Positions 20,292-38,240 of a stretch of 64,000 nucleotides of DNA are shown here, one piece after another. The translations under genes and the position numbers were made by a program. The stretch lies in NCBI GenBank assembly GCA_035499515.1, contig DATJYR010000041.1, positions 14,492 through 78,491 of the forward strand, given 5' to 3'. The DNA comes from Steroidobacteraceae bacterium. GTDB taxonomy: Bacteria; Pseudomonadota; Gammaproteobacteria; Steroidobacterales; Steroidobacteraceae. Under the pieces are notes generated by a model. That model was not told the origin of the DNA and searched no databases. It was given only the letters and a program-made list of their open reading frames with translations. How positions within the stretch are numbered: the first letter of the stretch is position 1; the number at the start of each line of letters is the position of its first letter.

Positions 20292-20297
20292 CGGACC

Positions 20298-21467: not shown

Positions 21468-21755
21468 ATGTCCGCGAGCGCCACGATGACCCCGGAAGAG
21501 CTGAGCATGGCCCAGAATCTGGTGCAGGCCCTGAGCCTGGAGGGCATCGAAGCCAGCTCGATCGCACCGGAGGCCATGCTGTTCGGCAGCCACGCCGATG
21601 GCCTCGGGCTCGATTCCATCGACGCGCTGGAAATCGCGCTCATGGTGCAGCAGCAGTACGGTGTGGAGCTGCGCTCCGAAGACCAGCAGGCGCGCGCCGC
21701 GTTCACCTCCCTGCGCAGCCTCACGAACTACGTACAGCAACGTCGCAAGAACTGA
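21468..21755 (+). CDS. acyl carrier protein (apeE position)
   Basis: LGLDSIDALEIALMVQQQYG, a Ser attachment motif; 95 aa. It is the first gene of the divergent plus-strand operon. Confidence 0.85.
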   Translation: MSASATMTPEELSMAQNLVQALSLEGIEASSIAPEAMLFGSHADGLGLDSIDALEIALMVQQQYGVELRSEDQQARAAFTSLRSLTNYVQQRRKN

Positions 21756-21804
21756 TCCTGCGGCGCGGTCCGGCAGCCGCCAGCCTGGGAAAAGGTAGAC
21801 GCGC

Positions 21805-22395: not shown

Positions 22396-23651
22396 TCTTC
22401 ACCGCGCCGCTGGACGAAACGCTGGTGTGGCACGAGGGGCGCGCGGTGAGCCGCGCGGGCTTCCTGCATGCCGCGCAACAACTCGCGCGGCGCCTGCCCA
22501 GCGCCAGCTACTGCATCAACCTCTGCAACTCGCGGCTGGCATTCATGCTGGGCTGGGTGGCCGCCGCCCTGGCCGAGCAGGTCACGCTGCTGCCGCCGAA
22601 CCAGACCGAGGGCGCGGTGGCGAAGATCGCCGCCGCGCATTCCAACGCCATCACGCTCGACGACAACTGCCTGCACCAGCTCGACTGGCACACGCCGGCC
22701 AGCGCCGACCTCGAGCCCGATGCACGGCGCGTCATGGCCATGCTCTACACCTCCGGCAGCACCGGCGCGCCCGTGGCGCACGCCAAGACCTGGCAGGCGC
22801 TGTCGCGGACCGGCGATCTCGACGCCGCGCGCTTCGTGCACGATCGTCCGGTGAATCTCGTCGCCACCGTGCCGGGCCAGCACATGTTCGGCCTGCAGAC
22901 CACGTTGCTGCTGCCGTTCCGCAGCCACTGCGCCATCCACGACAGCCGGCCGTTCTTTCCCGCGGACGTGCGTCATGCGCTCGAATCAGTGCCCGAGCCG
23001 CGCGCGCTGATCAGCACGCCGGCGCAGCTGCGCGTGTGCCTCGCGACCGGCGTGCGCCTGCCCGCCGTGCAGTTCGTGCTGTCGGCCACGGCGCCGATGC
23101 CGCGCGAGCTCGCGGCGCGCGCCGAATCGTTCTGGGCCACCGAAGTGCTCGAGATCTACGGCTCCACCGAAGCCGGGACCATGGCCACGCGCCGCACCAC
23201 GCAGAGCGACTACTGGCAGCTGCTGCCAGGGGCGAGCATCGAGCGCCAGGCCGACGGCAGCGTGTTCCACGCGCTGCACCTGCCCGATCCGCTGCCGCTC
23301 ACCGACCACATCGAACTGCACGGCCGGCGCGAGTTCCGCCTGCTCGGACGCGCCAGCGACCTGGTCAAGATCGCGGGCAAGCGCGCCGCGCTGGGCGATC
23401 TGACGCAGACGCTGCTCGACATCGACGGCGTCGAGGACGGCGCGGTGTTCCTGCCGCCGGGCGCCGACCGCACCGCGGCGCTGGTGGTGACGCGCACGCT
23501 GACTCCCGCGCAGATCCTCGACAGCCTGGTGCTGCACATCGATCCGGTGTTCCTGCCGCGACCGCTGCTGATCGTGAACCGGCTGCCGCGCAACGAGGTG
23601 GGGAAACTCACCCAGGACGCCTTGCAGGCCGTACTACAATCGGCGCGATGA
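22392..23651 (+). CDS. AMP-dependent synthetase/ligase (aryl-starter adenylating enzyme, apeH position)
   Basis: Internal ATG (MIFTAPLDETL). Motifs MLYTSGSTGAPV, EIYGSTEAG and DLVKIAGKR. Confidence 0.85.
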   Translation: MIFTAPLDETLVWHEGRAVSRAGFLHAAQQLARRLPSASYCINLCNSRLAFMLGWVAAALAEQVTLLPPNQTEGAVAKIAAAHSNAITLDDNCLHQLDWHTPASADLEPDARRVMAMLYTSGSTGAPVAHAKTWQALSRTGDLDAARFVHDRPVNLVATVPGQHMFGLQTTLLLPFRSHCAIHDSRPFFPADVRHALESVPEPRALISTPAQLRVCLATGVRLPAVQFVLSATAPMPRELAARAESFWATEVLEIYGSTEAGTMATRRTTQSDYWQLLPGASIERQADGSVFHALHLPDPLPLTDHIELHGRREFRLLGRASDLVKIAGKRAALGDLTQTLLDIDGVEDGAVFLPPGADRTAALVVTRTLTPAQILDSLVLHIDPVFLPRPLLIVNRLPRNEVGKLTQDALQAVLQSAR

Positions 23652-24847
23652 AGCTGCTCGGCATCACCCACTTCACGCTCACCTCGGCGCTGGGCCGGGG
23701 TCGCGCGGCGCACTGGCGCGCGCTGGAGTCCGCGACCACCGGCCTCGCGCCGGCGCGGTTCGATGGCAGCATCCTGCAATCGCACCTCGGCGAGGTGCCG
23801 GGACTCGAGCAGGCGCTGCCCGATGACCTGATCGCCTACGAGTGCCGCAACCACCGCCTGGCGTGGCTGGCCCTGCAGCAGGACGGGTTCGTCGCCGCGG
23901 CCGGGCAGCTGCGCGAGCGCTACGGCGCCGGCCGCGTGGGCGTGTTCATGGGCACCAGCACCGCGGGCATCCACAGCACCGAACTCGCCTATCGCGCTCG
24001 CGCGGCACCCGACACCGCGCTGGCCGCCAGCTTCAGTTACCGGCACACGCAGAGCCTGTTCTCGGTGGCCGGCGTCGTCGCGCAGGCGCTGCAGCTCGCA
24101 GGGCCTGCGATCACCATTTCCACCGCGTGCTCCTCGAGCGCCAAGGTGTTCCCCGCGGCGTATCGCAGCATCCAGCTGGGCCTGTGTGACGCGGCCGTGG
24201 TGGGCGGCGTGGACAGCCTGTGCCTCACGACGCTGCACGGCTTCAATTCGCTGCAGCTGATTTCCGACGACGTGTGCCGTCCGGCCGACGCGCAGCGCCG
24301 CGGCATTTCGATCGGCGAGGCCGCAGGCTTCGCGATCGTCGAGACGGCCGCCGCCAGCGGCCGGGCCGGTTGGTCGTTGCTGGGGTATGGCGAGAGCGGC
24401 GACGCCCACCACATGTCCTCGCCCCATCCCGAGGGCGAGGGCGCGGCCGCCGCGATGCGCGCGGCGCTGCTGAGCGCGGCGCTGCGTCCCGACGACATCG
24501 ACTACGTCAACCTGCACGGCACGGGCACCAGGGCCAACGACGCGGCGGAAGACCGCGGCGTGTGCGCGGTGCTCGGCACCAGCACGCCCTGCAGCTCCAC
24601 CAAGGGCTGGACCGGCCACACGCTGGGCGCGGCCGGCATCGTCGAGACCGGCCTGTCCCTGCTGTGCCTCGAGAACGGCTTCCTGCCGCGCAGCCTCAAC
24701 ACGCGCGAGCGCGATCCGGCGCTGGGCGCCAACCTCCTCATGGAATCGCGCCGCGCGCCGTTGCGCCACGTGATGAGCAACTCGTTCGGCTTCGGCGGCA
24801 GCAACTGCGTGCTGGTGTTCGGGCACGGCGGAGACGGCAGCCCGTGA
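23648..24847 (+). CDS. beta-ketoacyl synthase (KS-alpha, apeO position)
   Basis: Internal ATG (MKLLGITHFTL). Motifs: Cys box ISTACSSSAKV, NLHGTGTRAND and GWTGHTLGAAG. Confidence 0.9.
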   Translation: MKLLGITHFTLTSALGRGRAAHWRALESATTGLAPARFDGSILQSHLGEVPGLEQALPDDLIAYECRNHRLAWLALQQDGFVAAAGQLRERYGAGRVGVFMGTSTAGIHSTELAYRARAAPDTALAASFSYRHTQSLFSVAGVVAQALQLAGPAITISTACSSSAKVFPAAYRSIQLGLCDAAVVGGVDSLCLTTLHGFNSLQLISDDVCRPADAQRRGISIGEAAGFAIVETAAASGRAGWSLLGYGESGDAHHMSSPHPEGEGAAAAMRAALLSAALRPDDIDYVNLHGTGTRANDAAEDRGVCAVLGTSTPCSSTKGWTGHTLGAAGIVETGLSLLCLENGFLPRSLNTRERDPALGANLLMESRRAPLRHVMSNSFGFGGSNCVLVFGHGGDGSP

Positions 24848-25644
24848 AGCGCGTCGCCTACGTCGAAAGCCTCGGCTTCGCCGCGCCCGGCCTGCCCGAC
24901 TGGCTCACCACGCGGCGCGTGCTGCGCGATGAACAGCTGTACCAGCCCTGCGACCTGCCTGTGTACCAGCCCGCGCTGCTGCCGCCCAACGAGCGCCGCC
25001 GCGCGAGCCAGACGGTGCGCCTGGCGTTCCGCGTCGCGGAGGAAGCGACCCGGGCCAGCAGCATCGCGGCCAACCGGCTCGCCTGCGTGTTCGCCTCTTC
25101 GGATGGCGATCTCAACATCGCGCACAAGCTGTGCCTGGCGCTGGCGGAACCACAGCAGACGGTCTCGCCCACCGACTTCCACAACTCCGTGCACAACGCG
25201 GCCGCCGGTTACTGGAGCATCGCCGCACTGGCCACCGGGCCGTCCACCGCGGTTGCGGCCTACGACTACAGCTTCGCGGGCGGACTGATGGAAGCGCTGG
25301 GCATGGTGAGCGTCGAACGCCATGCCACGCTGCTGATCGCGTACGACGTGCCCGCGCCGGCGCCGCTGCTGGCCACGCGGCCATTGACGGTGGCGGTGGG
25401 CGTGGGGCTGGTGCTCACGCCGGAGCCGACACCCAACACGCAGGCACGCCTGGCGTTCGAGACCGGCCCGGGCGCCGAGACCTCCCTGCCGCACGTCGGA
25501 CTCGAAGCGCTGCGCCAGGGCAATCCGGCCGCGCGCGGACTGCCGCTGCTGCGGGCCATCGCGCGGGGCGCGGGCAGCGCGGTGCTGGCCCTGTCGGATG
25601 CGCTGCTCGCGCACGTGACGGTGGCCGGCGGCGGCGGGCCATGA
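24844..25644 (+). CDS. KS-like chain-length-factor subunit (apeC position)
   Basis: GTG with a GTGA overlap (VKRVAYVESLGFAAPGL). It has a KS-like fold region FHNSVHNAAAGYWSIA with no active-site Cys. Confidence 0.75.
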   Translation: MKRVAYVESLGFAAPGLPDWLTTRRVLRDEQLYQPCDLPVYQPALLPPNERRRASQTVRLAFRVAEEATRASSIAANRLACVFASSDGDLNIAHKLCLALAEPQQTVSPTDFHNSVHNAAAGYWSIAALATGPSTAVAAYDYSFAGGLMEALGMVSVERHATLLIAYDVPAPAPLLATRPLTVAVGVGLVLTPEPTPNTQARLAFETGPGAETSLPHVGLEALRQGNPAARGLPLLRAIARGAGSAVLALSDALLAHVTVAGGGGP

Positions 25645-26579
25645 GCGCAGCGGCGCACGCGGTGAGCGAAGGCATCGGCATCGCGCATCTCAGCCACCGC
25701 TACCCGGGCGCCGCCGCGCCGGCGCTGGATGACGTGAGCCTCGAGATCCCGGCCGGCAGCAGCTTCGGACTGCTCGGTCCGAATGGCGCGGGGAAGACCA
25801 CGCTGCTGTCCATCCTCATGGGACTGCAGCGGCCGCAGTCGGGCACGGTGCGCGTGGCCGGACTGGACGTCGCGCGGGCCACGCGCCGGGTACGCGGCCT
25901 GAGCGCGCTGGTGCCGCAGGACCAGGCGTTCTACCTGCAGCTCAGCGGGCTGGAGAACCTGCGCTTCTTCGCCGATGTCTACGGGCTCAGCGCCGCGCAA
26001 TGGCGCGATCGCCTCGACTACGTCACGCGCGTATGCGGCCTGCAGGAGCTGCTCGGCAAACGCTCGCAGGACTATTCGGGCGGCATGAAGCGGCGCCTGA
26101 ACCTCGCCATCGGCCTGTTGAACGCGCCGCGCATCCTGTACCTCGATGAGCCCACGGTGGGCATCGATGCGATTTCGCGCCAGGTGATCATCGCAGCCAT
26201 CCAGGCGCTGCGCGCCACCGGCACGACGCTGATCTACACCTCGCACTACATGGAGGAAGTCGAGGCGATCTGCGATCAGATCGCGGTCATCAACCATGGC
26301 CGCGTCATGGCGCGCGACAGCACCGCCAATCTGCTGCACCAGAAGGCGGGCAAGACGCTGCTGCTGCGCTTCGCCGCACCGCCTGGCTCCGCGGCGCTCG
26401 CTGCGCTGGCCGGGTGGTCGCCGGTGGCGCTGCCCGATGGCCAGTACGAGCTCATGCTGCGCGACGCGGGTCAGCTCGCGCTGGTGGTCGAAGCCTGCCG
26501 CGCGCACTGGCTGCAGATCGAGCAGCTGCAGTTCGGCGTCAGCCGGCTGGAGCGCATCTACCTGGAGCTGCTCAAGTGA
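25641..26579 (+). CDS. ABC transporter ATP-binding protein
   Basis: Motifs GPNGAGKTT, YSGGMKRRL and LYLDEPTVGID. ATGA overlap upstream. Confidence 0.9.
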   Translation: MSAAAHAVSEGIGIAHLSHRYPGAAAPALDDVSLEIPAGSSFGLLGPNGAGKTTLLSILMGLQRPQSGTVRVAGLDVARATRRVRGLSALVPQDQAFYLQLSGLENLRFFADVYGLSAAQWRDRLDYVTRVCGLQELLGKRSQDYSGGMKRRLNLAIGLLNAPRILYLDEPTVGIDAISRQVIIAAIQALRATGTTLIYTSHYMEEVEAICDQIAVINHGRVMARDSTANLLHQKAGKTLLLRFAAPPGSAALAALAGWSPVALPDGQYELMLRDAGQLALVVEACRAHWLQIEQLQFGVSRLERIYLELLK

Positions 26580-27784
26580 GCCGCTCGGCGCTGCTGGCGT
26601 GCATCCGCAAGGAGCTGCTGCTGCTCGGCCGCGACCTGCACGGCCTGGCGCTCCTGTTCCTCATGCCGCTGGCATTCGTGCTCATCATGTCGCTGGCGCT
26701 GCAGGACCAGTTCGCGACCCAGGCCGGCGCCAAACTCGCGGTGCTGGTGACGGACGCGGACCACAGTCCGGCTTCGGCCGATCTCGTCAAGACGCTCACC
26801 GGCAGCAACGCGTTCCGGTTCGTGACGGACGACACGGCGCAGGACGCGACCCTCACCGACCGCGCGCTGCGCCGGGGCGATTACGCGTTCGCAGTGCTGA
26901 TCGCGCATGGCTACGCCGGCAACCTGCTCGGCACGCCCGCCGCGGGCGCCCCGCCGCTGGTCACGCTGAGCGTGGCGCCGGACACCAGCCGGCAGATGGA
27001 GGCGATCTTCGAAGGCAGCGTGCGTGCGGCGCTGGGTCGCGCGCGCATGGGCGCCCTGCTGCTGGGTCTGGGCGGCAACGCGCCGGCCGAACCCGCGACC
27101 GACAACGCCATCGGCCTGCACTACGCCTACGCGAGCGACACCGCGGGTCGGGCCGCCGCCGTCCAGCCCACCGCCGTGCAGCAGAGCGTGCCCGCCTGGC
27201 TGGTGTTCGGCGCGTTCTTCGTGGTGGTGCCGTTGTCGAACACGCTGATCCGCGAGCGCCAGCAGGGCACGCTGCGCAGGCTCCGCAGCACCAATCTCGG
27301 CACGCTCACGCTGCTGCTCGGCAAATTGGTTCCGTACTTTCTCATCAACCAGCTGCAGGTGGTGATGATGCTGCTGGCGGGCCGCTACCTGGTGCCGCTG
27401 CTGGGCGGGCAGGCGCTGCAGATCAACGGCGCGTGGTGGCTGCTGGCGATCATGGCGGCGGCACTGAGCTGCGCGGCGCTGGGACTGGCGCTGCTGGTCG
27501 CGGTCACCTCGCGCACCACCGAGCAGGCCACGCTGCTCAGCGGCACCGGCAACATCGTGCTGGCGGCGCTCGGCGGCATCATGATCCCGAAGTTCGTGAT
27601 GCCCGCCGCGATGCAGAGCGTCGCGGCGTTCTCGCCCATGTCCTGGGGTCTCGAGGGTTTCCTCGACGTGCTGTTGCGCGGCGGCGGATTGCGCGAGATT
27701 GCACCAGAAGCGGGCGGATTGACCGCCCTCGGGCTGGCGACAATACTGCTGGCCTGGCTGCTGCAATCGCGGCGCAGCGACTGA
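26576..27784 (+). CDS. ABC-2 type transporter permease
   Basis: GTG with a GTGA overlap (VSRSALLACIRKELLLLGRD). It has a large extracytoplasmic loop followed by about five C-terminal TM segments. Confidence 0.8.
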   Translation: MSRSALLACIRKELLLLGRDLHGLALLFLMPLAFVLIMSLALQDQFATQAGAKLAVLVTDADHSPASADLVKTLTGSNAFRFVTDDTAQDATLTDRALRRGDYAFAVLIAHGYAGNLLGTPAAGAPPLVTLSVAPDTSRQMEAIFEGSVRAALGRARMGALLLGLGGNAPAEPATDNAIGLHYAYASDTAGRAAAVQPTAVQQSVPAWLVFGAFFVVVPLSNTLIRERQQGTLRRLRSTNLGTLTLLLGKLVPYFLINQLQVVMMLLAGRYLVPLLGGQALQINGAWWLLAIMAAALSCAALGLALLVAVTSRTTEQATLLSGTGNIVLAALGGIMIPKFVMPAAMQSVAAFSPMSWGLEGFLDVLLRGGGLREIAPEAGGLTALGLATILLAWLLQSRRSD

Positions 27785-27807
27785 ACTCTCCATCATGGCT
27801 GGACGGC

Positions 27808-28077
27808 ATGGCTGAACTGGAAATCGAAACGCTCAAACGGGACCTCAAGTCGATGATCGTCACCGAATGCGACAAGGACGTCCTGCCAGCCAGCATCGGC
27901 GATGAGGAACTGCTGATCGGCGGACCGCTGGACCTGGATTCGCTCGATGCCTTGCAGATCTGCCTGGCGGTCAAGGATCGCTACGACGTGCGCATCGAGA
28001 ACGGCCCCGAAGCGCGCAAGGCACTGGCGTCCGTGGCGGCGCTGGCGCAGACCATCCTGGACGCCAGGGCCGCGTGA
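27808..28077 (+). CDS. acyl carrier protein (third ACP of the cluster)
   Basis: MAELEIETLKRDLKSMIVTE...GGPLDLDSLDALQICLAV; 89 aa. Confidence 0.8.
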   Translation: MAELEIETLKRDLKSMIVTECDKDVLPASIGDEELLIGGPLDLDSLDALQICLAVKDRYDVRIENGPEARKALASVAALAQTILDARAA

Positions 28078-28102
28078 TCCGCAACCGCCTGATCGACTGC
28101 TG

Positions 28103-29266
28103 ATGCGAGCCTGCTATTTCTCCGGCGCCGCCCTCCACACCAGCGCGGGGCAGGACCTGCCCGCCCACCTTCAGGCGCTCGAACGCGGACCCGTGGGTCC
28201 GGAGCAGGTCGCCGTGGAGTACGCGCAGCAGACCCAGTGGCTGCCCTACAAGCTGCTGGCCGGCGCGCCGCTCGTGGAACAGGAGACGCGGCTCAACCGC
28301 GTGCTCGACGCGCTGATCGAGCAGGTGTTCGAGCACTCCGGCCTGTCCTCGCAGGACAAGTCCCGTTGCGGCCTGTTCGTGGGTTCCTCCTCATTCGACA
28401 TCGGCGGCGGCGAGGCGCTGTACCGCGAGGCGCTGCTGCACGATGCCCACGCGCTCGCGCTGGAGGAGAACAGCAGCCTCGGCAACCTCGCGGCGGACAC
28501 GGTGCAGCGCTTCGGGCTGCGCGGACCCGATTACAGTTTCAACACCGCCTGCACCGCCAGCGCCAACGCGCTCGTGTATGCCGACGGCATGATCCGCAAT
28601 GGCCAGCTCGAGCATGCGCTGGTGATCGGCGTGGAGAGCTTCAATGCCATCACCGCGCTGGGTTTCAACGGACTGCAACTGCTCACGCGCACCGGCATGC
28701 GCCCGTTCAGTCCCGAGCGCAACGGCCTGGTGCTGGGCGAAGGCTGCTCGGTGCTGCTGTTGGGCGCGCGGCCGCATGGCGCCCATCCGTGGCGGCTGGT
28801 GAGCAGCGCGAACCAGTGCGACACCTACGGCATGTCGGCCGCCAATCCCGACGGCTCGACCGTGGCGTGGGTGATCCAGCGCGCCCTGGAGCGCGCCAAC
28901 CTCGAACCGCGCGACATCGTCGCCATCAAGACGCACGGCACCGCGAGTCTCTCCAATGACGAAGCCGAAGCCGCGGGCATCCGGCGCGTGTTCGCGACGC
29001 CTCCGCCGCTGTGCGCGCTCAAGCCGTACCTCGGCCACACGCTCGGCGCCTGCGGCCTCAACGAACTGCTGCTGTTCCGCGCAGCCGCCGACCAGGGCTT
29101 CCTGATCGCCACGCCCGGCATCGGCGTTGGTGACGAGAAACTCGGCGTGACCCTGAACCAGGCGCCGTGCGACCTGCCGCGCGGCCACTATCTGATGAAT
29201 TACTTCGGCTTCGGCGGCAACAACACCGCGCTCATCGTGAGCAACCTCGCGGCGGACGCAGCATGA
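28103..29266 (+). CDS. beta-ketoacyl synthase (second KS-alpha-like)
   Basis: Internal ATG (MRACYFSGAALHTSAG). Motifs FNTACTASANA, IKTHGTASLSND and YLGHTLGACG. Confidence 0.85.
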   Translation: MRACYFSGAALHTSAGQDLPAHLQALERGPVGPEQVAVEYAQQTQWLPYKLLAGAPLVEQETRLNRVLDALIEQVFEHSGLSSQDKSRCGLFVGSSSFDIGGGEALYREALLHDAHALALEENSSLGNLAADTVQRFGLRGPDYSFNTACTASANALVYADGMIRNGQLEHALVIGVESFNAITALGFNGLQLLTRTGMRPFSPERNGLVLGEGCSVLLLGARPHGAHPWRLVSSANQCDTYGMSAANPDGSTVAWVIQRALERANLEPRDIVAIKTHGTASLSNDEAEAAGIRRVFATPPPLCALKPYLGHTLGACGLNELLLFRAAADQGFLIATPGIGVGDEKLGVTLNQAPCDLPRGHYLMNYFGFGGNNTALIVSNLAADAA

Positions 29267-30156
29267 GCGCGTGGCAGATCTACGCCGCCGGCGAGCACCA
29301 GCACGCGGTGGACGATCCGCTGCCGCCGTTGAAAGCGCTGCTGGAGGCGAGCACCGGCCGCGCGGTGCGGCGCGTGGGCCGGTTCATCCAGCTGGCGCTG
29401 ATCGGGGCTGCGCGCTGCCGTCCGCCGGACATCGGGATACCGACGGAAACCGCGGTGTACCTGGCCTCGGGCCGCGGCGATCTCGAGCTGACGCTGGAAA
29501 TCATGACGCAGCTCTTCAAGGGTGGCCACAGTCCGAAGCCGCTGAATTTCGTCAACACGGTGAGCAATGCCGCCTGCTTCTACGTCGCGCAGCTGCTGCA
29601 GCTGCAGTCGCGCAGCAATTTCGTCGGCAGCCGCCACTTCGCGTTCGAGAGCGTGCTGCAGCTCGCGGTGCAGGACCTGGAGGCGGCCGTGGTGGATTCG
29701 GCGCTGGTGGGCAGCGTGGACATCGCTTCCGCGCCGCTCGACGAACATCGCCGCCGCCTGGGCGTGCCGCCCGGAACCCGGATGGGCGAAGCCTCACACT
29801 GGTTGTGGATGGGCGCACCCCATCGCGCGCGCCCACGGCTGGGCGATCTGCTGGCCGCGCGTCATTTCGCCGATCGCAGCGCGTTGCTGCAGTGGATCGG
29901 CCAGCAGCAGCTCGGTTCGGGCAAGTGCCTGCTGGCCTGCGGGCAATTCCTCGACGCCGCCGACTTCGACCTGCTGCGCACCGAGTCCGGCGTGGCGGGC
30001 GTGTTCGTGTACCGCTCGCAGCTACCCTATTACGACAGCCAGAGCGCGGCGGTGATCGGCGAATTCCTGCGCGCCCCGGACGCGGGGCAGCTGCTGCACC
30101 TCAACGCGGATCACAACGGCCGCTACAGCGCGCTGCTGGTACGGCGCCGCTCCTAG
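29263..30156 (+). CDS. KS N-terminal-like / chain-length-factor-like protein (second copy)
   Basis: ATGA overlap (MSAWQIYAAGEHQ). NFVNTVSNAACFYVAQ occupies the place of the Cys box, so there is no catalytic Cys. It ends in a TAG shared in CTAG with the convergent gene. Confidence 0.65.
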   Translation: MSAWQIYAAGEHQHAVDDPLPPLKALLEASTGRAVRRVGRFIQLALIGAARCRPPDIGIPTETAVYLASGRGDLELTLEIMTQLFKGGHSPKPLNFVNTVSNAACFYVAQLLQLQSRSNFVGSRHFAFESVLQLAVQDLEAAVVDSALVGSVDIASAPLDEHRRRLGVPPGTRMGEASHWLWMGAPHRARPRLGDLLAARHFADRSALLQWIGQQQLGSGKCLLACGQFLDAADFDLLRTESGVAGVFVYRSQLPYYDSQSAAVIGEFLRAPDAGQLLHLNADHNGRYSALLVRRRS

Positions 30157-31193
30157 AACGCCTGCAGCGGCTTCCACACCGCCGCTTCGCGGTCCGCGAT
30201 GTCGTTCAGCGCCGCCTGCAGCGCCGCCAGGTCCATCGCCTCACGCCCGCGCACCATCTTGGTCGCCCGCAGCGCGAAACGCCGCCACTCGTCGCCGGCG
30301 TCCGTGAGCTGCTTCGATGCCTGCGCCAGGCGCTGGTCACCCAGCAGCTGCGCGGCTTCCTGCAGGAACGAGGCGTACAGGAAACGGAAGCCCGCGCCAC
30401 CGCTGCCGATCTCTTCCTGCATGCGCACGATGTGCGTCAGGTACAGCGGCAGGTAACGCGCCCGGTCCGCACGCCTGTCGAGCTCGAGGATCTTGCGGCC
30501 GAGATAGCGGATGCCCTTGATGCCGATCATCGGGAACATCGGCTGCATCATGTAACGGTAGTTGGCGTGGATCGCGATCGGAATCAGTTTCCTGAAGTCG
30601 ATGTCCGGGGCGACGCGCGTCGGGTAGTACATCAGTCCCTTGGCCTGCAACGCACCCTTGGCGAAGCGCGCCTTGGTCATCGCCTCGCGCGGACAGCGCG
30701 TGGTCATCTCGAACAGCGGATCGCTGACGAGGTAGTCATCGCCCTCACGCCCGTAGACGATGAGGTTGTGCATGTTGAAATGGAAGCGGAACTGGTCGGG
30801 CACGTACGGCAGCCAGTAGATGCAGGTCTGCAGGCCCACCACGCGGCCCGCATCGAGCTGCGCGTCGAGCGCGCGCACGCCTTCGGCCTGCGAACTGAAT
30901 TTCTGGCGCACCATCTCGATGCCCAGGCGCTTGTGCATGGCCTTCACGATGGCGCCCGGCCACATGCGGTAGGAGATGAGCGGCATGCCCGCCATCTTGA
31001 TGATCGGGATGTAGGCGAACGCCAGCGCCGATGCGAGGCCGAACGCCATCGGTTCGCTCATCGGCAGGCCGTAGTGCGTCACCAGCGCGGACACCACGCC
31101 GCTTTCGCAATGCGCGGCCTGCCGGTGCTGGAAGCCGCCGCCGCGGCCGCCCGTGCCGGCGCCGCCCCCAACTGCCTCGCGCACCGCGTTCAT
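30153..31193 (-). CDS. BtrH_N-like / DUF4872-like protein (papain-like Cys enzyme fold, putative acyl-ACP:acceptor transferase)
   Basis: This is the C-terminal 346 codons of track ORF 30153..32747, starting at the internal ATG (MNAVREAVGGGAGTGGRGGGFQHRQAAHCESGVVSALVTHYG). The H-C-E-S motif near the N-terminus matches BtrH N-terminal domain proteins as I remember them. ATGA overlap with the upstream ORF. Confidence 0.6.
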   Translation of the reverse strand: MNAVREAVGGGAGTGGRGGGFQHRQAAHCESGVVSALVTHYGLPMSEPMAFGLASALAFAYIPIIKMAGMPLISYRMWPGAIVKAMHKRLGIEMVRQKFSSQAEGVRALDAQLDAGRVVGLQTCIYWLPYVPDQFRFHFNMHNLIVYGREGDDYLVSDPLFEMTTRCPREAMTKARFAKGALQAKGLMYYPTRVAPDIDFRKLIPIAIHANYRYMMQPMFPMIGIKGIRYLGRKILELDRRADRARYLPLYLTHIVRMQEEIGSGGAGFRFLYASFLQEAAQLLGDQRLAQASKQLTDAGDEWRRFALRATKMVRGREAMDLAALQAALNDIADREAAVWKPLQAF

Positions 31194-31594
31194 GGCGCCG
31201 CCGGCAACTGCCGCAGCTCGGCGATGCCCACGCCCATGGCTTCCGCGTAGCGCGCCATGAGCGGGTCGGGAAGCTTGGCGTACACGGCCGGCCTGAAGTG
31301 GCGCTTCACGCGCCAGCGCCACAGGCCGCTGACCATCACCAGCGTGTCGAAGTCCATGCGGTTGCGGTACATGTGGTATTCGAGCGCCGAGGTCTTGCCG
31401 TCGCGCGCGCGCTGCCAGGCGTCGCGGCTCAGCCGGCGCAGCTCCTCGACCGCCAGTTCGGTGGAGAAGCTCTCGGCTTCCCAGCCGCTGGACTGCACAC
31501 CGGTGTATTCGCCCTGCTCGTCGACCGCATACAGGAGCTTGCGCAGCCCACCGTACGTCGCGGAAGCATCCTGCGGGACGGACTGGCGATCCAA
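31190..31594 (-). CDS. hypothetical protein, 134 aa, between darB and the BtrH_N-like gene
   Basis: The ORF starts at TTG, 4 nt after the darB stop. I recognise no motif. The C-terminal PLMARYAEAMGVGIAELRQL is faintly HTH-like. Confidence 0.45.
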   Translation of the reverse strand: MDRQSVPQDASATYGGLRKLLYAVDEQGEYTGVQSSGWEAESFSTELAVEELRRLSRDAWQRARDGKTSALEYHMYRNRMDFDTLVMVSGLWRWRVKRHFRPAVYAKLPDPLMARYAEAMGVGIAELRQLPAAP

Positions 31595-31597
31595 GTC

Positions 31598-32740
31598 TCA
31601 GACCACCGTCAGGTGCATGAAGCCGGTGGCGAAGCGGCCGCTTTCCGGCACGTAGCACATCAGGCGCTGGCCCTTCTGCAAGCGTCCCGAGCGCACCAGG
31701 TCGTCCATCATGATGTACATCGATGCCGAGCCGGTGTTGCCCTTGGTGGGCAGGTTGGTGAACCAGCGCTCCTGCGGCACGTCGACACCGGCCCTGGCCA
31801 TGTGCGCGTGCACCTTGTCGCGGAAGAACTTCGATGAGTAGTGCGGCAGGAAGAAATCGATCTGGTCCGCTTGCAGGCCGCGCTTCTGCACCAATGCTTC
31901 GAGCGGCTTCTGCACGGTGTACACCATCACGTGCTCGTTCAGCAGCTTCACGTCCTGGCGCACCGCCATGATGGTGTGCCGCTCGCGCTCGGCGGGCGTG
32001 TAGCGCGCCCAGCCGGTGATCCTGCCGTCGGCCGCTTTCACGGCGCCCGCGTACATGCAGGTTTCCATCGTGCCCGCGTACGAGAAGATCTCGATCCAGT
32101 CGATGCGCAGGTTGACGCGGCCGGGACGCGGCTCGGGCTGCATGAGGAACGCGCCGGCGCCGTCGGAGAGCATCCAGCGCAGGAAATCGCGATCGAAGGC
32201 GAGTTCGGGGCGCGCCTCGAGTTCGTCGTGATCGGACTCCACCTGCAGGTTGCGCGCGCTCATCATCGCGGAGGAGAGTTCGGAGCCGGTGGCGATGGCA
32301 TTGCGATGCAGACCGGAGGCCACGGCCATGTAACCGTACTTCACCGAGGCCAACCCGCTCAGGCACACGCCGGTGGTGGCGACGGCTTCCAGCGGCGGCA
32401 GGCCCAGTTCGCCGTGCACCATCGACGCGTGGTTGGGCATGAGCTGGTCGGCGATGGACGTGCCGCACGCCAGGCAGTCGAGCTGGTTCAGATCGAAACC
32501 ATCCGCCGCCAGCAGGCGCACGGCCGCCGCGGTCAGCGTGGCATTGCTGTGCGTGGGTTGCAGCGTGACGGGATCGATGCAGTAGTGGCGCGTCTGGATG
32601 CCATTGCTGCGCAATACCGTGGGACGGGCTCGCGAGGGCTTGTCGCCGAGCTGCCCGAGGATGCGCTCCATCTGGTCGTTGGCGACAGGCGCATTGGGCA
32701 GGAACGCCGACGTCCCCGTTATGTAAGCCAGTCCACTCAT
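31598..32740 (-). CDS. darB: KAS III-like condensing enzyme, DarB type (dialkylresorcinol biosynthesis)
   Basis: 380 aa. It has a FabH-like fold with TTGVCLSGLASV, LPHYSSKFF and PTKGNTGSASMY. It lies 3 nt downstream of the darA-like gene. Confidence 0.75.
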   Translation of the reverse strand: MSGLAYITGTSAFLPNAPVANDQMERILGQLGDKPSRARPTVLRSNGIQTRHYCIDPVTLQPTHSNATLTAAAVRLLAADGFDLNQLDCLACGTSIADQLMPNHASMVHGELGLPPLEAVATTGVCLSGLASVKYGYMAVASGLHRNAIATGSELSSAMMSARNLQVESDHDELEARPELAFDRDFLRWMLSDGAGAFLMQPEPRPGRVNLRIDWIEIFSYAGTMETCMYAGAVKAADGRITGWARYTPAERERHTIMAVRQDVKLLNEHVMVYTVQKPLEALVQKRGLQADQIDFFLPHYSSKFFRDKVHAHMARAGVDVPQERWFTNLPTKGNTGSASMYIMMDDLVRSGRLQKGQRLMCYVPESGRFATGFMHLTVV

Positions 32741-32743
32741 AGG

Positions 32744-33670
32744 TCACTCACCCGATGGGGCCGCAAAGTACTGCCGTTGCTGTGCAATGCGCTTGCGGGT
32801 CAGGGGCGACAACAGGGTTTTCAGCAGGAACACCACGGGTACCACGGTCAACAGCATCGCAACCAGGAACAGCACGTACAGGGCCAAAATCATGCGTCGC
32901 AGCAGCGCAGCCGGCTTGCCGCAGGCGCGCAGTAATGTACCCCAGAGGCGAAAACTGCGCTGTACGATTTGTTCGGAACTGATCAAACCCGGGTGCACGA
33001 TCACAGCGCCGAGACCTCCGAGCATGGGGCGGTTGTCGGCGGCCGATCGCTGCGGCAACTGCGCGGCGATCGCCTTGCCGAAGCGCGCCGCGTCGCGGAT
33101 ATCGCTGTCCCAGATACCGGCGCGCGGGAACATCCCGCCGAGGTACGGGCCCTTGTTGCCGCTCAGCAGCCACCAGGGCGTCGTGACCACCGACTTCGCG
33201 CCGTGGGTGCGCTCCGTGAGCGCAACGTTGTCGATCAGGCGCGCGCCCAGCGCCTGCAGTTTCCGCTTCACGCGCTCCTGCGCCATGAGCCACATGTTGC
33301 GGCAGCCGATCACCGTGATCACCGGCTTGCCGCGCAACAGCCGCGCGCCCTGCTCGCTCTGCAGGAATGCCGTGGTGGGCAGCGAAGGCGAGATGAACCA
33401 CACTGTGTAGGCCAGGATCACGAGATCGAACTCGGCGCCATCCGCGATCGCGAGCGGCGCGTTGGGTCCGGCATCGTCGAAGATGCATTCGGGGAAGGTG
33501 TTGAAGAAGCCCCAGAACGACCATGGGAACACGAACGGCGTGAGCGGCTTGAGCGGCGCGAGCACCACGTCGAAGTTCGCCGGGTCGGCACGCAGCGGCG
33601 CGGTGAGCGAGTCGACGATGTCGCCGAGCTGTCCGGTCTGCGAGTAGTAGACGACCAGCACGCGCTTCAT
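32744..33670 (-). CDS. darA: dialkylresorcinol condensing enzyme DarA-like (flavodoxin-like N-terminus, C-terminal TM anchor)
   Basis: The MKRVLVVYYSQTGQLGDIV N-terminus is characteristic of DarA annotations. The C-terminal hydrophobic segment is ILALYVLFLVAMLLTVVPVVFLL. It is adjacent to darB. Confidence 0.7.
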   Translation of the reverse strand: MKRVLVVYYSQTGQLGDIVDSLTAPLRADPANFDVVLAPLKPLTPFVFPWSFWGFFNTFPECIFDDAGPNAPLAIADGAEFDLVILAYTVWFISPSLPTTAFLQSEQGARLLRGKPVITVIGCRNMWLMAQERVKRKLQALGARLIDNVALTERTHGAKSVVTTPWWLLSGNKGPYLGGMFPRAGIWDSDIRDAARFGKAIAAQLPQRSAADNRPMLGGLGAVIVHPGLISSEQIVQRSFRLWGTLLRACGKPAALLRRMILALYVLFLVAMLLTVVPVVFLLKTLLSPLTRKRIAQQRQYFAAPSGE

Positions 33671-33674
33671 GGCG

Positions 33675-33989
33675 TCAACTCCGCCGCGCCACGGCCAGAT
33701 GCCCCTCAGCCAGCAGTTCGCTGTCGATCCAGCACTTGAAGCGCAGCCGTCCCGCCGCGGACTCGGCCGGCTCGCCCGCGACGAATTCAGCGTGGCCGAA
33801 TTCGGCGTGGAACTGCTGGCCCGGCAGCAGCATGCGCAGGAACTTCAGTTTGCGGATGCCGTGCACGGTGAGTTCCGGCCGCTGCCGCGACAGTTCACCC
33901 AGCAATTCGCTCAGCAGCACCACGCCCGGCACCACCGGCATGCCCGGAAAATGACCCGGCAAGGCAGGATGCGAATCCGCAACAATCAT
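33675..33989 (-). CDS. FabZ/FabA-like hotdog dehydratase subunit (second apeI-like copy)
   Basis: The last 104 codons of track ORF 33675..34532, from the internal ATG (MIVADSHPALPGHFPGMPVVPGVVLLSELL). It shares the GHFPG.P..P motif with the 19950..20291 product. Confidence 0.65.
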   Translation of the reverse strand: MIVADSHPALPGHFPGMPVVPGVVLLSELLGELSRQRPELTVHGIRKLKFLRMLLPGQQFHAEFGHAEFVAGEPAESAAGRLRFKCWIDSELLAEGHLAVARRS

Positions 33990-34049
33990 GTGCAATCCAA
34001 GGATAATGCAGAGCACAAGTATAGGGTCCGACCGGGGGACAATCCATCC

Positions 34050-34490
34050 ATGAATCTGAAGTCGCTGCTGCCGCATCAGGGCGCCATGTTCCTGATCGAC
34101 GACGTCATTGCTTTCGATCGCAATGAAATCACCTGCACGGCCAGCAGTCATCAGAACCCCGACAACCCGCTGCGCCACGCGGGCCACCTGCCCGCGCACG
34201 CGCTGATCGAATACGCCGCGCAAGCCGCGGGCATCCACGGCGGACTGCTCAATCGCGAGCTGCATCCCGATGCACCGGCGCAGATGGGTTACCTGGCCGT
34301 GGTGAGCAATCTGGAGTGGCGGGTGACGCGGCTCGATGACCTGCCCGGCGCGCTGGACATCTTCGCGCGCCGCACGGCGGTGACGCCCGGCGGGCGCGCC
34401 TATCGCGTGCGCGTGGAGCATCGGAACACCGTCATCCTGAACGGCGACCTGATCATCGCACTCGTGACCAGCGGCAAGGACGTGGTCTGA
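34050..34490 (+). CDS. hotdog-fold dehydratase-like protein (second apeP-like copy)
   Basis: Internal ATG of track ORF 33669..34490 (MNLKSLLPHQGAMFLIDDVIAF). It resembles the 13360..13833 product (LLPHEGRMLLLEEV). Confidence 0.7.
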   Translation: MNLKSLLPHQGAMFLIDDVIAFDRNEITCTASSHQNPDNPLRHAGHLPAHALIEYAAQAAGIHGGLLNRELHPDAPAQMGYLAVVSNLEWRVTRLDDLPGALDIFARRTAVTPGGRAYRVRVEHRNTVILNGDLIIALVTSGKDVV

Positions 34491-34537
34491 CGCGCCCGCC
34501 CGCTTCCAGCTGCTGGTCTTGCTCCCGGCCATTCCCG

Positions 34538-34564
34538 TACAGGGTCTGCAAAGCAGACCCTGTA
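34538..34564. terminator. perfect 12-bp hairpin between convergent genes (possible bidirectional terminator)
   Basis: TACAGGGTCTGC-AAA-GCAGACCCTGTA. There is no clear T-tract on either side. Confidence 0.4.
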
Positions 34565-34583
34565 GCAGTGGGGCGCCAGCCCC

Positions 34584-35357
34584 TTACGGGAACCCGGTCT
34601 CGGTCGGATCCGGCACGATCTCGATGACGCGGTACGTGGAGGTGTAGGCGCTGCTGTTCGAGAACACGATGCGGCCCACGCCCTTGTACAGCGCGGTCTG
34701 GCGCACATTGTCCTTGCCGCTGAAGTTGAACGGACGGAACGCCTTGCCGGTCATGCGCGAAGTGGTCGCGGTGGGCTCGCCGATGGTCGAGTACACCTCT
34801 TCCATGCTCATGCCTTCTTTCACCAGGCTAAAGTCGGCCTTGGCACCCGGGGCACGGGCCGGCGCGGCCGGCGCGGCGGCCGCCGGCTTCGCGGCGCCAC
34901 CGCCCGCATATGCCGAACCGCCTTCCTTGTAGTTGTCGAGGTTGATGCTGCCGACCACGTAGGGCGCAACGCCCTTGGGCAGGTTGTCAGCGCCCTTCTT
35001 GCAGTAACCCTTTTCCTTGCGCTGCGTGGCCTTGCCACCGATGTCCGTCAGCAGGGCCTTGTAGCGGCCATTGCCGGAATTGCCGAGCGCCTTGCACAGC
35101 CAGGCCATGGTGTCGACGAAGGTCTCGCCGGTGTTGGTGGTGAACTTCTCCGCCAGCGTTTCGGCCGTGACGTCCAGCAGCTCCTGATCGGTGAGGCTCT
35201 GGTTGAAAATCTCCTCAGCGGCACGCTGCATCGACGACACGCCGCCGCTGGCCAGCATCTGCGCGTAGCGCTGGGCCGAAGCGTCCATGCCGTAAGCCGT
35301 ACTCACCAGCAGGCCGGCAGACAACGCGCACGCGACAGTCAGAATTTTTCTGGACAT
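34584..35357 (-). CDS. secreted protein with Ala/Pro linker and C-terminal BamE/SmpA-like region
   Basis: Internal ATG preceded by GGAGGG (MSRKILTVACALSAGLLVSTAYG, a signal peptide). It has a GGGAAKPAAAAPAAPARAPGA linker and a C-terminal FSLVKEGMSMEEVYSTIGEP...GKAFRPFNF. Confidence 0.6.
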   Translation of the reverse strand: MSRKILTVACALSAGLLVSTAYGMDASAQRYAQMLASGGVSSMQRAAEEIFNQSLTDQELLDVTAETLAEKFTTNTGETFVDTMAWLCKALGNSGNGRYKALLTDIGGKATQRKEKGYCKKGADNLPKGVAPYVVGSINLDNYKEGGSAYAGGGAAKPAAAAPAAPARAPGAKADFSLVKEGMSMEEVYSTIGEPTATTSRMTGKAFRPFNFSGKDNVRQTALYKGVGRIVFSNSSAYTSTYRVIEIVPDPTETGFP

Positions 35358-35433
35358 GGCATACCCTCCGTAGCGAGGCGCATAGGCTAACCATTTGCGC
35401 GCGCAGGCACCAGCATGCCGCATAATCCCGGCC

Positions 35434-36108
35434 ATGCAGCAGCTGGAGCTTTGGCTGGCGACGCCAGAGGCCGGAAATTTCTTCGATCCCGCCACGCTCA
35501 GCGCCGCCGACCTGCAACGCTGGCAGACCATCCGCAGCCCGCAACGCCGCGCCGACTGGATGAGCAGCCGCGCCCTGCTGGCGCACCGTCCGCCCGCCGC
35601 GGCAGGGGCCTGGAGCCTGAGCCACTCCGCCGGGCACGCCGCCCTCGCGTTGGGCCCGGCCGGATTCAGCCTGGGCGTGGACCTGGAGCGCTGCCGGCCG
35701 CGGCGCTTCCTCGATCTGGCCGCCAACTGGTTCAGCCCGCGCGAGTTCGAGCAGCTCAGCGAGCTGCCGCTGGAAGAACAGGAAGCGCGCTTCTACCTGC
35801 TGTGGACGCTCAAGGAGGCCTGCACCAAGGCCCTGGGGCTGGCCCTGCTGCAGGCCCTGCGCGACTGTGAATGGTGGCTGGAAGGCGCGGGCTGGCAGGC
35901 CCGGCTGCCGATCCGCAGCGCGTGGCGCGCGTGGGCCTACGCACCCCGCCCCGATCTGCGGCTGGCTTTGCTGGCCATCGGCAAAGATCGCGACAGACAC
36001 TTGACGGACACGCCCGCCCTGCATGGCTGGCCGACGGGATCGGAGCCGGCGCGCGGCGACCCGCCGGCCTGGCCCTGCCTGCTGGAACTGGCCCGGCCGG
36101 CCCGCTAG
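35434..36108 (+). CDS. 4-phosphopantetheinyl transferase (Sfp/EntD type)
   Basis: Internal ATG (MQQLELWLATPE). Motifs SLSHSAGHAA, GVDLE and WTLKEACTKALG. Confidence 0.8.
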   Translation: MQQLELWLATPEAGNFFDPATLSAADLQRWQTIRSPQRRADWMSSRALLAHRPPAAAGAWSLSHSAGHAALALGPAGFSLGVDLERCRPRRFLDLAANWFSPREFEQLSELPLEEQEARFYLLWTLKEACTKALGLALLQALRDCEWWLEGAGWQARLPIRSAWRAWAYAPRPDLRLALLAIGKDRDRHLTDTPALHGWPTGSEPARGDPPAWPCLLELARPAR

Positions 36109-36527
36109 TCCAGCAACCTTGCCAGGAAGCTGCGCCGCAGCCACACCGACGCGCCCAGGCCGATGCCGACCGCGGCGCCACCCACCGGCAGCGCGAACCG
36201 CGCCAGGCTCCCCAGTTCGCTGCTGAGCCACGGCCAGGCCAGCGCGAACACGATGCCACCCACGAACGCGCCCCCCACCAGGCTGCCGAGCGTGCGCCGG
36301 CGCAGACTCAGGTAGTCCTTGCGCAGCTCGGCCAGCCGCAGCTGCAGCTCGCGCTCCAGCTGCTGGCGCTGCCGCGGATCGGCCGTTGCGCTGCGGGCCA
36401 CGGCGGCATGGAGCCGGGCGCGGAAGTTGGCCGGCAGTGCGGGTGCGGGCAGCGCGCGCTGCAAGGCGCCCTGCAGGGCCTGCTCCAGTCCCGCTGCATG
36501 ATCCTGCGGCAAGCGTTGCTCCGTCAT
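36105..36527 (-). CDS. putative anti-sigma factor (single-pass membrane protein)
   Basis: ATGA overlap with the ECF sigma stop (MTEQRLPQD...). It has two hydrophobic segments near the C-terminus. The call rests on position only. Confidence 0.5.
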   Translation of the reverse strand: MTEQRLPQDHAAGLEQALQGALQRALPAPALPANFRARLHAAVARSATADPRQRQQLERELQLRLAELRKDYLSLRRRTLGSLVGGAFVGGIVFALAWPWLSSELGSLARFALPVGGAAVGIGLGASVWLRRSFLARLLD

Positions 36528-37111
36528 GATTCCTCCAGCCACAGTTCCGTGCGGTCTAGCCCCAGCTTCCTGAGCTGCTCCAGCACCAGCGCACGGGCCC
36601 GGAACAGGTTGGTTTTCACCGTGCCTTCGGGAACGCCCTGCATCTGCGCCACTTCCGCCACCGAGCGGTCCTCGTAGTAAAACAGTGTCAGCGTGCTGCG
36701 ATACTTCTGCGGCAACCCGTCGACCAGCTCGCGCAGCAGCGCCAGATGATCGCCCGCCTCGGGCGCCGGAGCGTGTCGTTGCGCATCCGCCTCGAGCGCC
36801 GTCGCCTCGTCGCTCAGCGATCCGTGTTCACGCCGGCGTTCGAGCGAGCTCAGGCAGCGGTTGCGCGTGATGGTGTAGATCCAGGTCGACAACGACGCGC
36901 GGCCATCGAAACCCGCCAGCGCCTTCCACACCCGCACCAGGCTTTCCTGGGCCGCATCGTCCGCATCGGCCGCCACGCCCAGCAGCGCGCAGCACAGGCG
37001 ATACACCTTGACCTCATAACGCTCGACCAGCAGCCCGAACGCGGCCTCCCGCCTTCCGCCCGCCAGCAGCTCCACGATTTCCCGGTCGCGTTCTGCGGCA
37101 GGCTGCTGCAC
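36524..37111 (-). CDS. ECF (sigma-70 family group 4) RNA polymerase sigma factor
   Basis: Region 2 is DAAQESLVRVWKAL...WIYTITRN and region 4 is VAEVAQMQGVPEGTVKTNLFRAR. The start is GTG, preceded by GGAG. Confidence 0.9.
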   Translation of the reverse strand: MQQPAAERDREIVELLAGGRREAAFGLLVERYEVKVYRLCCALLGVAADADDAAQESLVRVWKALAGFDGRASLSTWIYTITRNRCLSSLERRREHGSLSDEATALEADAQRHAPAPEAGDHLALLRELVDGLPQKYRSTLTLFYYEDRSVAEVAQMQGVPEGTVKTNLFRARALVLEQLRKLGLDRTELWLEES

Positions 37112-37246
37112 GTATCACTCCTTGACCACGTTGATACCCCGCGGGTCAGCAGCCGGTTTCAAAAAATAGTCTGTAACCGGACGGGGGGTAGCCGGGTATT
37201 AACGACGTCCAGTCAAACACACAGTCACTTTCACGAGGTTAGCATC

Positions 37247-38061: not shown

Positions 38062-38240
38062 AGCGCTGCATGGCCCCCGCCTCGCGGCGGTGACTTCAGC
38101 GGGACCGGCTCAGGGGTGCCAGCTGAAGTTCACCGCCAGCGATCGCGACGCGCTTCATGGATGGGGTATTCATTCGCGAACCAGTATCATCGGGCCCGGC
38201 GGGCGACCGCCTGAGCATCCCTGAACAGGCGCGCGAAACC

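Follow-up and report, generated by a model that had tools for sequence, protein, structure and literature searches.

We analyzed the gene pair darG-darH, found downstream of darA and darB in a 64,000-nucleotide (nt) stretch of Steroidobacteraceae bacterium DNA (assembly GCA_035499515.1, contig DATJYR010000041.1, positions 14,492 to 78,491; hereafter the window, from whose first letter all coordinates are counted). Both genes are read from the minus strand, darG at 31190–31594 and darH at 30153–31193, and they encode proteins of 134 and 346 amino acids (aa), respectively. According to its family and its predicted structure, DarH is almost certainly a carrier-protein-dependent transacylase that works with DarG. 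We give a probability of roughly 45% to the reading that DarH transfers an aryl-polyene chain bound to an acyl carrier protein (ACP) to a hydroxyl of a dialkylresorcinol (DAR), giving an ester; such a coupling of polyene and resorcinol is a reasonable hypothesis.

The initial annotation had recognised the 346-aa protein as being of the BtrH_N/DUF4872 type, and profile searches bore this out. DarH matched the Pfam domains BtrH_N (E-value 4.4e-47, 160 bits, cut-off 29.7) and DUF4872 (3.3e-51, 174 bits, cut-off 28), and scored 458.1 bits against the NCBIfam equivalog NF053550 (DarH_acyl, ‘BtrH-related acyltransferase DarH’, cut-off 300), in an alignment pairing DarH residues 21–343 with positions 2–324 of the 325 in the profile. 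Sequence searches of the PDB with DarH, either as a single sequence or as a 28-sequence profile, gave no match, and fold comparison alone worked. The AlphaFold2 model of DarH (mean predicted local distance difference test, pLDDT, 82; predicted template modelling score, pTM, 0.83) shows an alpha/beta N-domain at residues ~28–193 and a six-helix C-domain at ~200–343, which is the two-domain architecture (a papain-like N-domain plus a helix-rich C-domain) of the CtaG/BtrH/CcbD/AsbE class. The full-length Foldseek matches to this model in the PDB, with template modelling (TM) scores of 0.59–0.68 and E-values from 4e-9 to 5e-6, were AziU3/U2 (4e-9), CtaG (8e-9) and CcbD (5e-7 to 5e-6), and one of the matched CcbD entries includes the peptidyl carrier protein (PCP) domain of CcbZ. 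The BtrH_N/C39-like fold that had been expected was recovered in this way as a predicted papain-like/C39-like transacylase fold.

The same comparison bears on a most improbable alternative, in which DarH would be a C39-type leader peptidase serving the neighbouring ABC transporter in peptide export. The label ‘BtrH-like peptidase’ given in 2014 (PMC3949708), the adjacent transporter and weak Foldseek matches of the N-domain to the C39 domains of PCAT1 and ComA all speak for it. We rejected it on several grounds: those matches involve the N-domain only (E 8e-4 to 2e-2, TM on the query ~0.3) and are far weaker than those to the full-length transacylases, DarH has the extra DUF4872 domain, and the transporter, which is of the ABC-2 type, has its ATPase encoded separately and is no PCAT with a fused peptidase. 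Besides, the genomic context is lipid/polyketide throughout.

Regarding the active site, Cys29, His142 and Asp158 are invariant in 28 DarH homologues. Cys29, the predicted acyl-accepting nucleophile, is carried by FQHRQAAHCESGVV near the N-terminus of the protein and stands at the N-terminus of helix 29–40; its codon at 31107–31109 (minus strand) is TGC, as initially annotated. His142 (codon 30768–30770, minus strand), the predicted general base, starts the strand 142–150, and Asp158 (30720–30722, minus strand), the predicted third residue of the triad, lies just past the next strand. The Cys-His spacing is 113 residues in DarH versus 117 in CtaG (C11/H128), and the His-Asp spacing is 16 residues in both (H128/D144 in CtaG). 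By position, Cys29 corresponds to the nucleophiles that were mutated in CtaG (C11A) and CcbD (C19S). Because the three residues are invariant, spaced nearly as in CtaG and placed in the fold as just described, we infer from the model an intact active site equivalent to the CtaG triad.

Enzymes of the CtaG class use a Cys-His-Asp triad for ping-pong transfer from a carrier-protein thioester (PMC12865890). CtaG itself (the closthioamide ligase, PDB 9QUZ and variants) resembles DarH in its two domains, its triad spacing and a TM score of 0.64–0.68 on the query. It is only ~10% identical, however, it joins two carrier-protein-bound substrates into an amide product and it has no DarG-like partner, whereas DarH would use a free phenol as acceptor and yield an ester. 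BtrH (butirosin) and AsbE (petrobactin), both CtaG homologues, take carrier-bound donors and free small-molecule acceptors (PMC12865890), and DarH is proposed to work in the same way. What they acylate are amines (an aminoglycoside for BtrH, spermidine for AsbE), and DarH is likened to BtrH through the BtrH_N domain and not through the BtrH sequence itself. CcbD/LmbD (lincosamide condensation, PDB 7YN1 and 9DKR) is a full-length match with a TM score of ~0.6, and its structure with the CcbZ PCP domain, in which C19 is the mutated nucleophile, shows direct docking of a carrier protein; it differs in forming an amide with an amino sugar and in sharing ~15% identity with DarH. Finally, AziU2/AziU3 (azinomycin), the best match by Foldseek E-value, is a heteromeric pair, so that the fold can work as a two-protein complex. 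Its aziridine formation is functionally unrelated (PMC12865890), and both of its subunits are BtrH-like, while DarG is small and XRE-like.

The minus-strand open reading frames (ORFs) follow each other in the order hotdog, darA, darB, darG, darH. A small hotdog-fold (FabZ-like) gene with weak FabA/FabZ matches comes first (33675–33989), followed by darA (32744–33670, 308 aa), annotated as ‘dialkylresorcinol condensing enzyme’ (aromatase), and by darB (31598–32740, 380 aa), encoding a ketosynthase/cyclase of DAR synthesis of the β-ketoacyl-ACP synthase III (KAS III) type that scores 575 bits against the NCBIfam StlD/DarB family (cut-off 450). With 100% identity, DarA matches an NCBI protein of a Steroidobacteraceae bacterium that bears the name ‘dialkylresorcinol condensing enzyme’, and this match and the nearest DarH relatives assign the window to an uncultured member of the Steroidobacteraceae. 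Despite the name, DarA gave no match in Pfam or NCBIfam; judged by eye only, its N-terminus looks flavodoxin-like and its C-terminus hydrophobic. Of the spacers initially annotated as 4, 3 and 4 nt, those between hotdog and darA (4 nt, 33671–33674) and between darA and darB (3 nt, 32741–32743) stood, while the one between darB and darG measures 3 nt (31595–31597). The last junction is indeed an ATGA overlap (31190–31193). The TTG start of DarG is backed by its homologues, in which M/V-[DE]-K begins at the same aligned position, and DarH starts with ATG. We found no promoter-like or terminator-like sites within 29900–34700, and the lack of such sites inside the operon hints that hotdog-darA-darB-darG-darH may form a single transcription unit. 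The window has a G+C content of 68.7%. The darG/darH arrangement is not due to chance, because the homologues of each ORF number from hundreds into the thousands and their synteny is strictly conserved.

To place this operon among other genomes, we scanned one genome per species with the DarH alignment, which gave 590 confirmed relatives, and examined the best 80 of them (50–86% identity) with 10-kb flanks by tblastn with 26 proteins of the window. These 80 loci come from Gamma- and Alphaproteobacteria, Verrucomicrobia, Desulfobulbaceae, Campylobacterota, Acidobacteriota and Planctomycetota. DarA, DarB, DarG and DarH were colinear on one strand in all 73 loci with at least 2.7 kb of upstream sequence, so the linkage to darAB on which the initial annotation depended holds in every informative locus. 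Of the 66 loci for which 6 kb or more of downstream sequence was available, 62 carried a block encoding an ABC transporter, an ACP, a ketosynthase (KS) and a chain-length factor (CLF). In Desulfobulbaceae and Campylobacterota this block runs in the same direction as DarABGH, and in most Gamma- and Alphaproteobacteria it is inverted, so that it converges with DarH. In many loci, darA is immediately preceded by a homologue of the small hotdog gene. Only one locus of the 80 has no DarG before DarH: a contig of a Campylobacterota metagenome-assembled genome (L066, 71–3105), where the order is MipA, AMP-ligase and DarH (52% identical) with a 3-nt spacer, and where neither DarG nor DarAB was found in the 2.1 kb upstream of DarH. 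In two loci (L003 and L004), DarABGH is co-directional with a polyene ACP, AMP-ligase, KS and CLF, and in Sideroxydans DarH is likewise found amid polyene genes (PMC3949708). Outside this set, we observed distant BtrH_N-type proteins (~30% identity, 75% coverage) on at least 45 Acinetobacter plasmids and several haloarchaeal plasmids.

The 134-aa protein, which had initially been left without any assignment, belongs to a curated family: DarG scored 164 bits over residues 1–130 against NCBIfam NF053536 (‘DarG family dialkylresorcinol biosynthesis protein’, cut-off 70), and stayed below the flexirubin-specific equivalog NF053545 (118 bits versus a cut-off of 170). It had no Pfam match, and a PDB sequence search with DarG returned chance-level matches only. 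In the AlphaFold2 model (pLDDT 78), 43 low-confidence N-terminal residues are followed by a long helix and then by a five-helix domain. The low-confidence N-terminus still holds the conserved residues P7, Y22, G28 and G37, and the family shows there the motif VPQD..YA..G.Y..S.GW. At least 90% of 123 diverse family members (26–57% identity) retain P7, Y22, G28, G37, S69, M75, L85, H99, F105 and Y116. A DarG profile search over 1.84 billion representative proteins gave 476 DarG-family clusters, nearly all of them stand-alone proteins of 130–140 aa.

The five-helix domain raises the question of whether DarG is simply an XRE-type regulator that binds DNA to control the operon, next to DarH through mere operon packing, with DarH acting alone. 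Its C-terminal 60–70 residues resemble the helix-turn-helix of Cro, C1 and controller proteins in weak Foldseek matches (E 0.01–0.5, TM on target 0.6–0.74), and the putative recognition helix is Arg-rich in the window protein. This Arg/Trp-rich helix (WRWR) is not conserved family-wide, though, and H99 is its sole conserved residue; the conserved positions (VPQD..Y..G..GW, S69, M75 and Y116) lie mostly outside it. The Foldseek matches of DarG also include HppE, HEPD and MPnS, enzymes in which XRE-like domains serve as structural modules. Strict co-occurrence with DarH also argues against a plain regulator, as does the conserved start-stop overlap: in 37 of 79 loci the DarG and DarH reading frames share 4 nt, and in most others the DarG stop and the DarH start lie within ~11 nt of each other. 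Furthermore, we found one natural in-frame DarG-linker-DarH fusion (P0275, 482 aa), whose DarH part retains HCESGV. Considering the conservation pattern, the fusion and the start-stop coupling, DarG is more likely a partner subunit, and its being only a regulator is unlikely. The fusion gene (L081, 305–1753) sits at the end of a 134-kb contig from an organism with 48.8% G+C; darB is absent from the 304 nt upstream of it, and the genes on its 3' side look unrelated or mobile (DUF3800, phage integrase).

DarG and DarH are best read as an accessory to the pigment-type dar module that is dispensable for making the resorcinol ring. A darA-darB-acpP cassette on the Burkholderia pseudomallei plasmid NZ_CP009155.1 (L082, 19650–22047), whose DarA is 44.5% identical to that of the window, shows neither DarG nor DarH within 9 kb, and three Streptomyces plasmid loci carry ACP-KSIII-DarA without DarG/DarH. 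These DarA loci were drawn from a plasmid collection and make up a small sample, with one clean cassette plus the three Streptomyces loci. The B. pseudomallei cassette is flanked by tyrosine recombinases (integrase) and a transposase on a conjugative plasmid, which suggests that the synthesis of free resorcinol can travel as a mobile three-gene unit. In experiments reported for Azoarcus, its DAR proteins led to free DAR in Escherichia coli, while Azoarcus itself contained no free DAR and only the ester arcuflavin. The darABC systems of Pseudomonas and Photorhabdus make free DAR.

These observations also bear on a role for DarH in resorcinol precursor supply, where it would shuttle or release acyl, β-ketoacyl or enoyl chains from the KS/CLF/ACP of the module, with DarG as its partner. 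The chains could go from ACP to CoA or from ACP to DarB, or could be edited by hydrolysis with water as acceptor. Such a role fits the presence of DarH together with the ABC/ACP/KS/CLF block in 62 of 66 loci and the many stand-alone dar modules with no polyene genes nearby, and the CtaG-type fold suits any carrier-protein thioester as donor. DarB-type ketosynthases carry their own active-site cysteine, however, and loading of DarB needs no obvious transferase given that residue. The minimal darA-darB-ACP cassettes lacking DarGH and the sufficiency of the Azoarcus DAR proteins for DAR in E. coli are further points against it, and in Sideroxydans and the Campylobacterota locus L066 DarH lies amid polyene genes with the KS/CLF/ABC block not immediately adjacent. 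On balance, we regard precursor supply as unlikely.

What distinguishes the hybrid cluster from polyene-only ones points in the direction of ester formation. On gene content, the region from ~11.4 to 36.1 kb of the window really is one aryl-polyene and dialkylresorcinol pigment cluster, as initially annotated. Its polyene half corresponds to the E. coli ape gene set, including a PlsC-type acyltransferase and a thioesterase, and that set has no BtrH-like gene; of the genes by which the hybrid cluster exceeds this set, only darH encodes an acyl-transfer enzyme. The initial annotation held that none of the canonical ape or dar genes provides the transfer. The presence of a PlsC-type acyltransferase and a thioesterase in the cluster qualifies this, although both occur in polyene-only clusters too. 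The ApeD-type PlsC enzyme, whose fold is unrelated to that of DarH, is thought to attach the polyene acid to its acceptor in polyene-only clusters, and since it is present with or without dar genes, it does not explain the specificity of the resorcinol hybrids. We favour the ester, with the probability given above, because DarH is the sole acyl-transfer enzyme outside the ape set and because the polyene-DAR bond is the one known step in which an acyl group has to pass from a carrier to the nucleophile of a free small molecule.

Under the ester reading, an acyl group would move from a carrier-protein thioester to Cys29 of DarH and would then be passed, in ping-pong fashion and in the cytoplasm, to the nucleophile of a free acceptor. 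The cluster encodes three ACPs and a 4'-phosphopantetheinyl transferase (PPTase). The donor would be the finished ACP-bound aryl-polyene chain and the acceptor the phenolic hydroxyl of the dialkylresorcinol made by DarB and DarA, giving an ester of the flexirubin/arcuflavin type. DarG would be an obligate small partner, kept in fixed stoichiometry with DarH by the start-stop overlap. In its fuller and more tentative form, somewhat less probable than the ester itself, DarG-DarH would be a two-subunit carrier-protein-dependent O-acyltransferase forming a polyene-DAR phenyl ester, with DarG presenting the lipid acceptor or docking the ACP. The ABC-2 transporter and the Lol/MMPL-like genes of the cluster may then carry the ester to the outer membrane.

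Several points weigh against this assignment. Of the 52 loci with complete flanks, only 22 have polyene markers within 10 kb of DarH and 29 have none, so DarH follows the dar module (DarAB plus ABC/ACP/KS/CLF) far more tightly than it follows polyene genes; the polyene genes of the marker-free loci may be elsewhere in the genome, as in Azoarcus, or absent. The donor could also be a fatty-acyl- or β-ketoacyl-ACP rather than a polyene, because an ACP and a KS/CLF come with the dar module itself. The equivalence of the DarH triad to that of CtaG is drawn from spacing and secondary structure and not from a residue-level structural alignment. Other candidates for the ester bond are the PlsC-type acyltransferase of the window and, for flexirubin, FlxW. 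In the searchable literature, we found no experiment on DarG or DarH. AziU2/U3 illustrates that the same fold can do unrelated chemistry. Finally, CtaG, BtrH, AsbE and CcbD all acylate amines to give amides (PMC12865890), and forming a phenyl ester would add a new reaction to this fold.

That every characterised acyl-transfer member of the class makes an amide (PMC12865890) is also an argument for DarH as an N-acyltransferase, placing the polyene or the polyene-DAR on an amine-bearing anchor (an amino lipid or amino sugar) while another enzyme makes the DAR ester. Aryl-polyene clusters are, besides, thought to fix their pigment to a larger lipid anchor. Polyene-only clusters, however, make lipid-anchored pigment without a BtrH-like gene, DarH is tied to darAB in 73 of 73 loci, and we saw no co-varying gene that would supply an amine. 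The reported structures of arcuflavin and flexirubin contain an ester and no amide. We therefore consider N-acylation quite improbable and retain the DAR ester as the preferred product of DarH.

The gene pair is not a new find. Table 1 and Tables S1–S3 of Schoner et al. 2014 (PMC3949708) list DAR-aromatase, DAR-cyclase, ‘conserved hypothetical protein’ and ‘BtrH-like peptidase’ side by side for Azoarcus sp. BH72, Dechloromonas aromatica, Variovorax paradoxus and Sideroxydans lithotrophicus, with no function assigned, and NCBIfam already names DarH an acyltransferase. In Azoarcus sp. BH72 the four genes are called darA, darB, darD (azo0291) and darE (azo0290), and the ‘darG/darH’ of the Azoarcus paper are different genes, an inserted Phd/PilT toxin-antitoxin pair (PMC3949708). 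In the flexirubin clusters of Chitinophaga and Flavobacterium, DarG (hypothetical) and DarH (BtrH N-terminal domain) are followed by DarI/J (ABC transporter), DarC and DarD, and in Flavobacterium johnsoniae DarG and DarH are genes ‘98’ and ‘97’. The DarG/DarH of Chitinophaga pinensis, F. johnsoniae and Azoarcus belong to the same families as those of the window, occupy the same place after darA-darB and have the same ABC ATPase, permease, ACP and KS companions. Compared with the Bacteroidetes flexirubin dar cluster, the ABC/ACP/KS/CLF block of the window is inverted and convergent with DarH, and the window cluster as a whole is of the proteobacterial, halogenase-containing xanthomonadin/arcuflavin type. 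For the flexirubin ester, Schoner et al. 2014 proposed the Bacteroidetes-specific FlxW, ‘a ligase-like enzyme’, and the arcuflavin paper names no enzyme for its ester. We found no paper mentioning DUF4872 in the searchable literature. A table in PMC12968099 lists flexirubin-negative Cellulophaga genomes that have dar/flx matches but no G/H homologues, along with one KOH-positive strain without G/H; we did not rely on it, as its homology calls are loose and pigment was not extracted.

The aryl-polyene (Ape/xanthomonadin-type) part of the cluster, matching the E. coli ape gene table, occupies 11407–25644 on both strands. Its minus-strand genes (within 11407–21567) encode a KS, a FabG ketoreductase, an ApeP-like dehydratase, DUF3261, a halogenase and an MMPL/RND exporter, and further a LolA-like protein, a thioesterase, a glycosyltransferase, a hotdog protein, an ACP and the PlsC-type acyltransferase. 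The ORF with the latter, ApeD-like domain spans 20494–21567 (Pfam PF01553, 1.7e-16). On the plus strand, 21438–25644 encodes an ACP, an unknown protein, an AMP-ligase, a KS and a KS_2/CLF. The pigment is probably halogenated, as xanthomonadins are, since the polyene block contains a flavin-dependent halogenase (CmlS-like, 1.9e-43; 14451–15695, minus strand).

The second half of the dar module, identified by Pfam and NCBIfam matches and with approximate start codons, lies on the plus strand at 25650–30156, convergent with DarH. It comprises an ABC ATPase (~25650–26579), an ABC-2 permease (26414–27784), the ACP (~27820–28077), the KS (27947–29266) and a KS-like/CLF-like protein (29167–30156). 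The palindromic CTAG at 30153–30156 is read as a TAG stop in both directions, ending DarH on the minus strand and the KS-like gene on the plus strand, which leaves the two converging operons with neither an intergenic space nor a terminator between them. Convergent junctions are equally tight in several related loci (e.g. L014 and L019). On the other side of the dar operon, a divergent hotdog gene (~34060–34490, plus strand) stands back to back with the small hotdog gene at 33675–33989, with ~70 nt between their starts, and this divergent pair upstream of darA is conserved in many Gamma- and Alphaproteobacterial loci. The PPTase gene follows at 35386–36108 (plus strand). Between the dar operon and the PPTase gene, a minus-strand ORF (34584–35792) overlaps the latter on the opposite strand as a stop-to-stop frame; its product begins with MSRKILTVACALSAGLLVSTAYG, a signal- or lipoprotein-type leader in appearance, and had no Pfam or NCBIfam match. 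Just outside the pigment cluster, an ECF-type (extracytoplasmic function) sigma factor gene (36524–37114) precedes an 843-aa ORF (38127–40658, plus strand) with weak HerA/DUF87 P-loop matches, which may be unrelated.

The genes themselves, their families, their linkage to darAB and the acyltransferase name are already on record, and the window adds a member from an uncultured lineage. What is new here is the quantified cross-phylum synteny, the DarG/DarH overlap together with one fusion, and, for DarH with its intact predicted triad, a structural relationship to CtaG, CcbD and AziU2/U3. Clusters for aryl polyenes rank with the most widespread biosynthetic gene clusters of bacteria, and flexirubin-type pigments are a classical chemotaxonomic marker. 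To our knowledge, an enzyme that couples the polyene acid with the resorcinol has yet to be demonstrated. DarH, unlike FlxW, is conserved in Bacteroidetes and in proteobacterial hybrid clusters alike, and the CtaG and CcbD structures released in 2023–2025 give it solved relatives, which suggest a concrete mechanism open to testing. Should the ester reading prove false, DarG-DarH would still be a strictly conserved two-protein unit of the dar module. If it is true, DarH would be the first enzyme of the CtaG/BtrH/CcbD/AsbE class of protease-fold ligases to make an ester, extending the class from amide to ester, and would supply the enzyme for the final flexirubin/arcuflavin step, for which we found no tested enzyme in the literature. 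DarG would then represent a new kind of XRE-fold accessory subunit, and the pair would provide a genetic marker to tell resorcinol-esterified pigments from free resorcinol signals.

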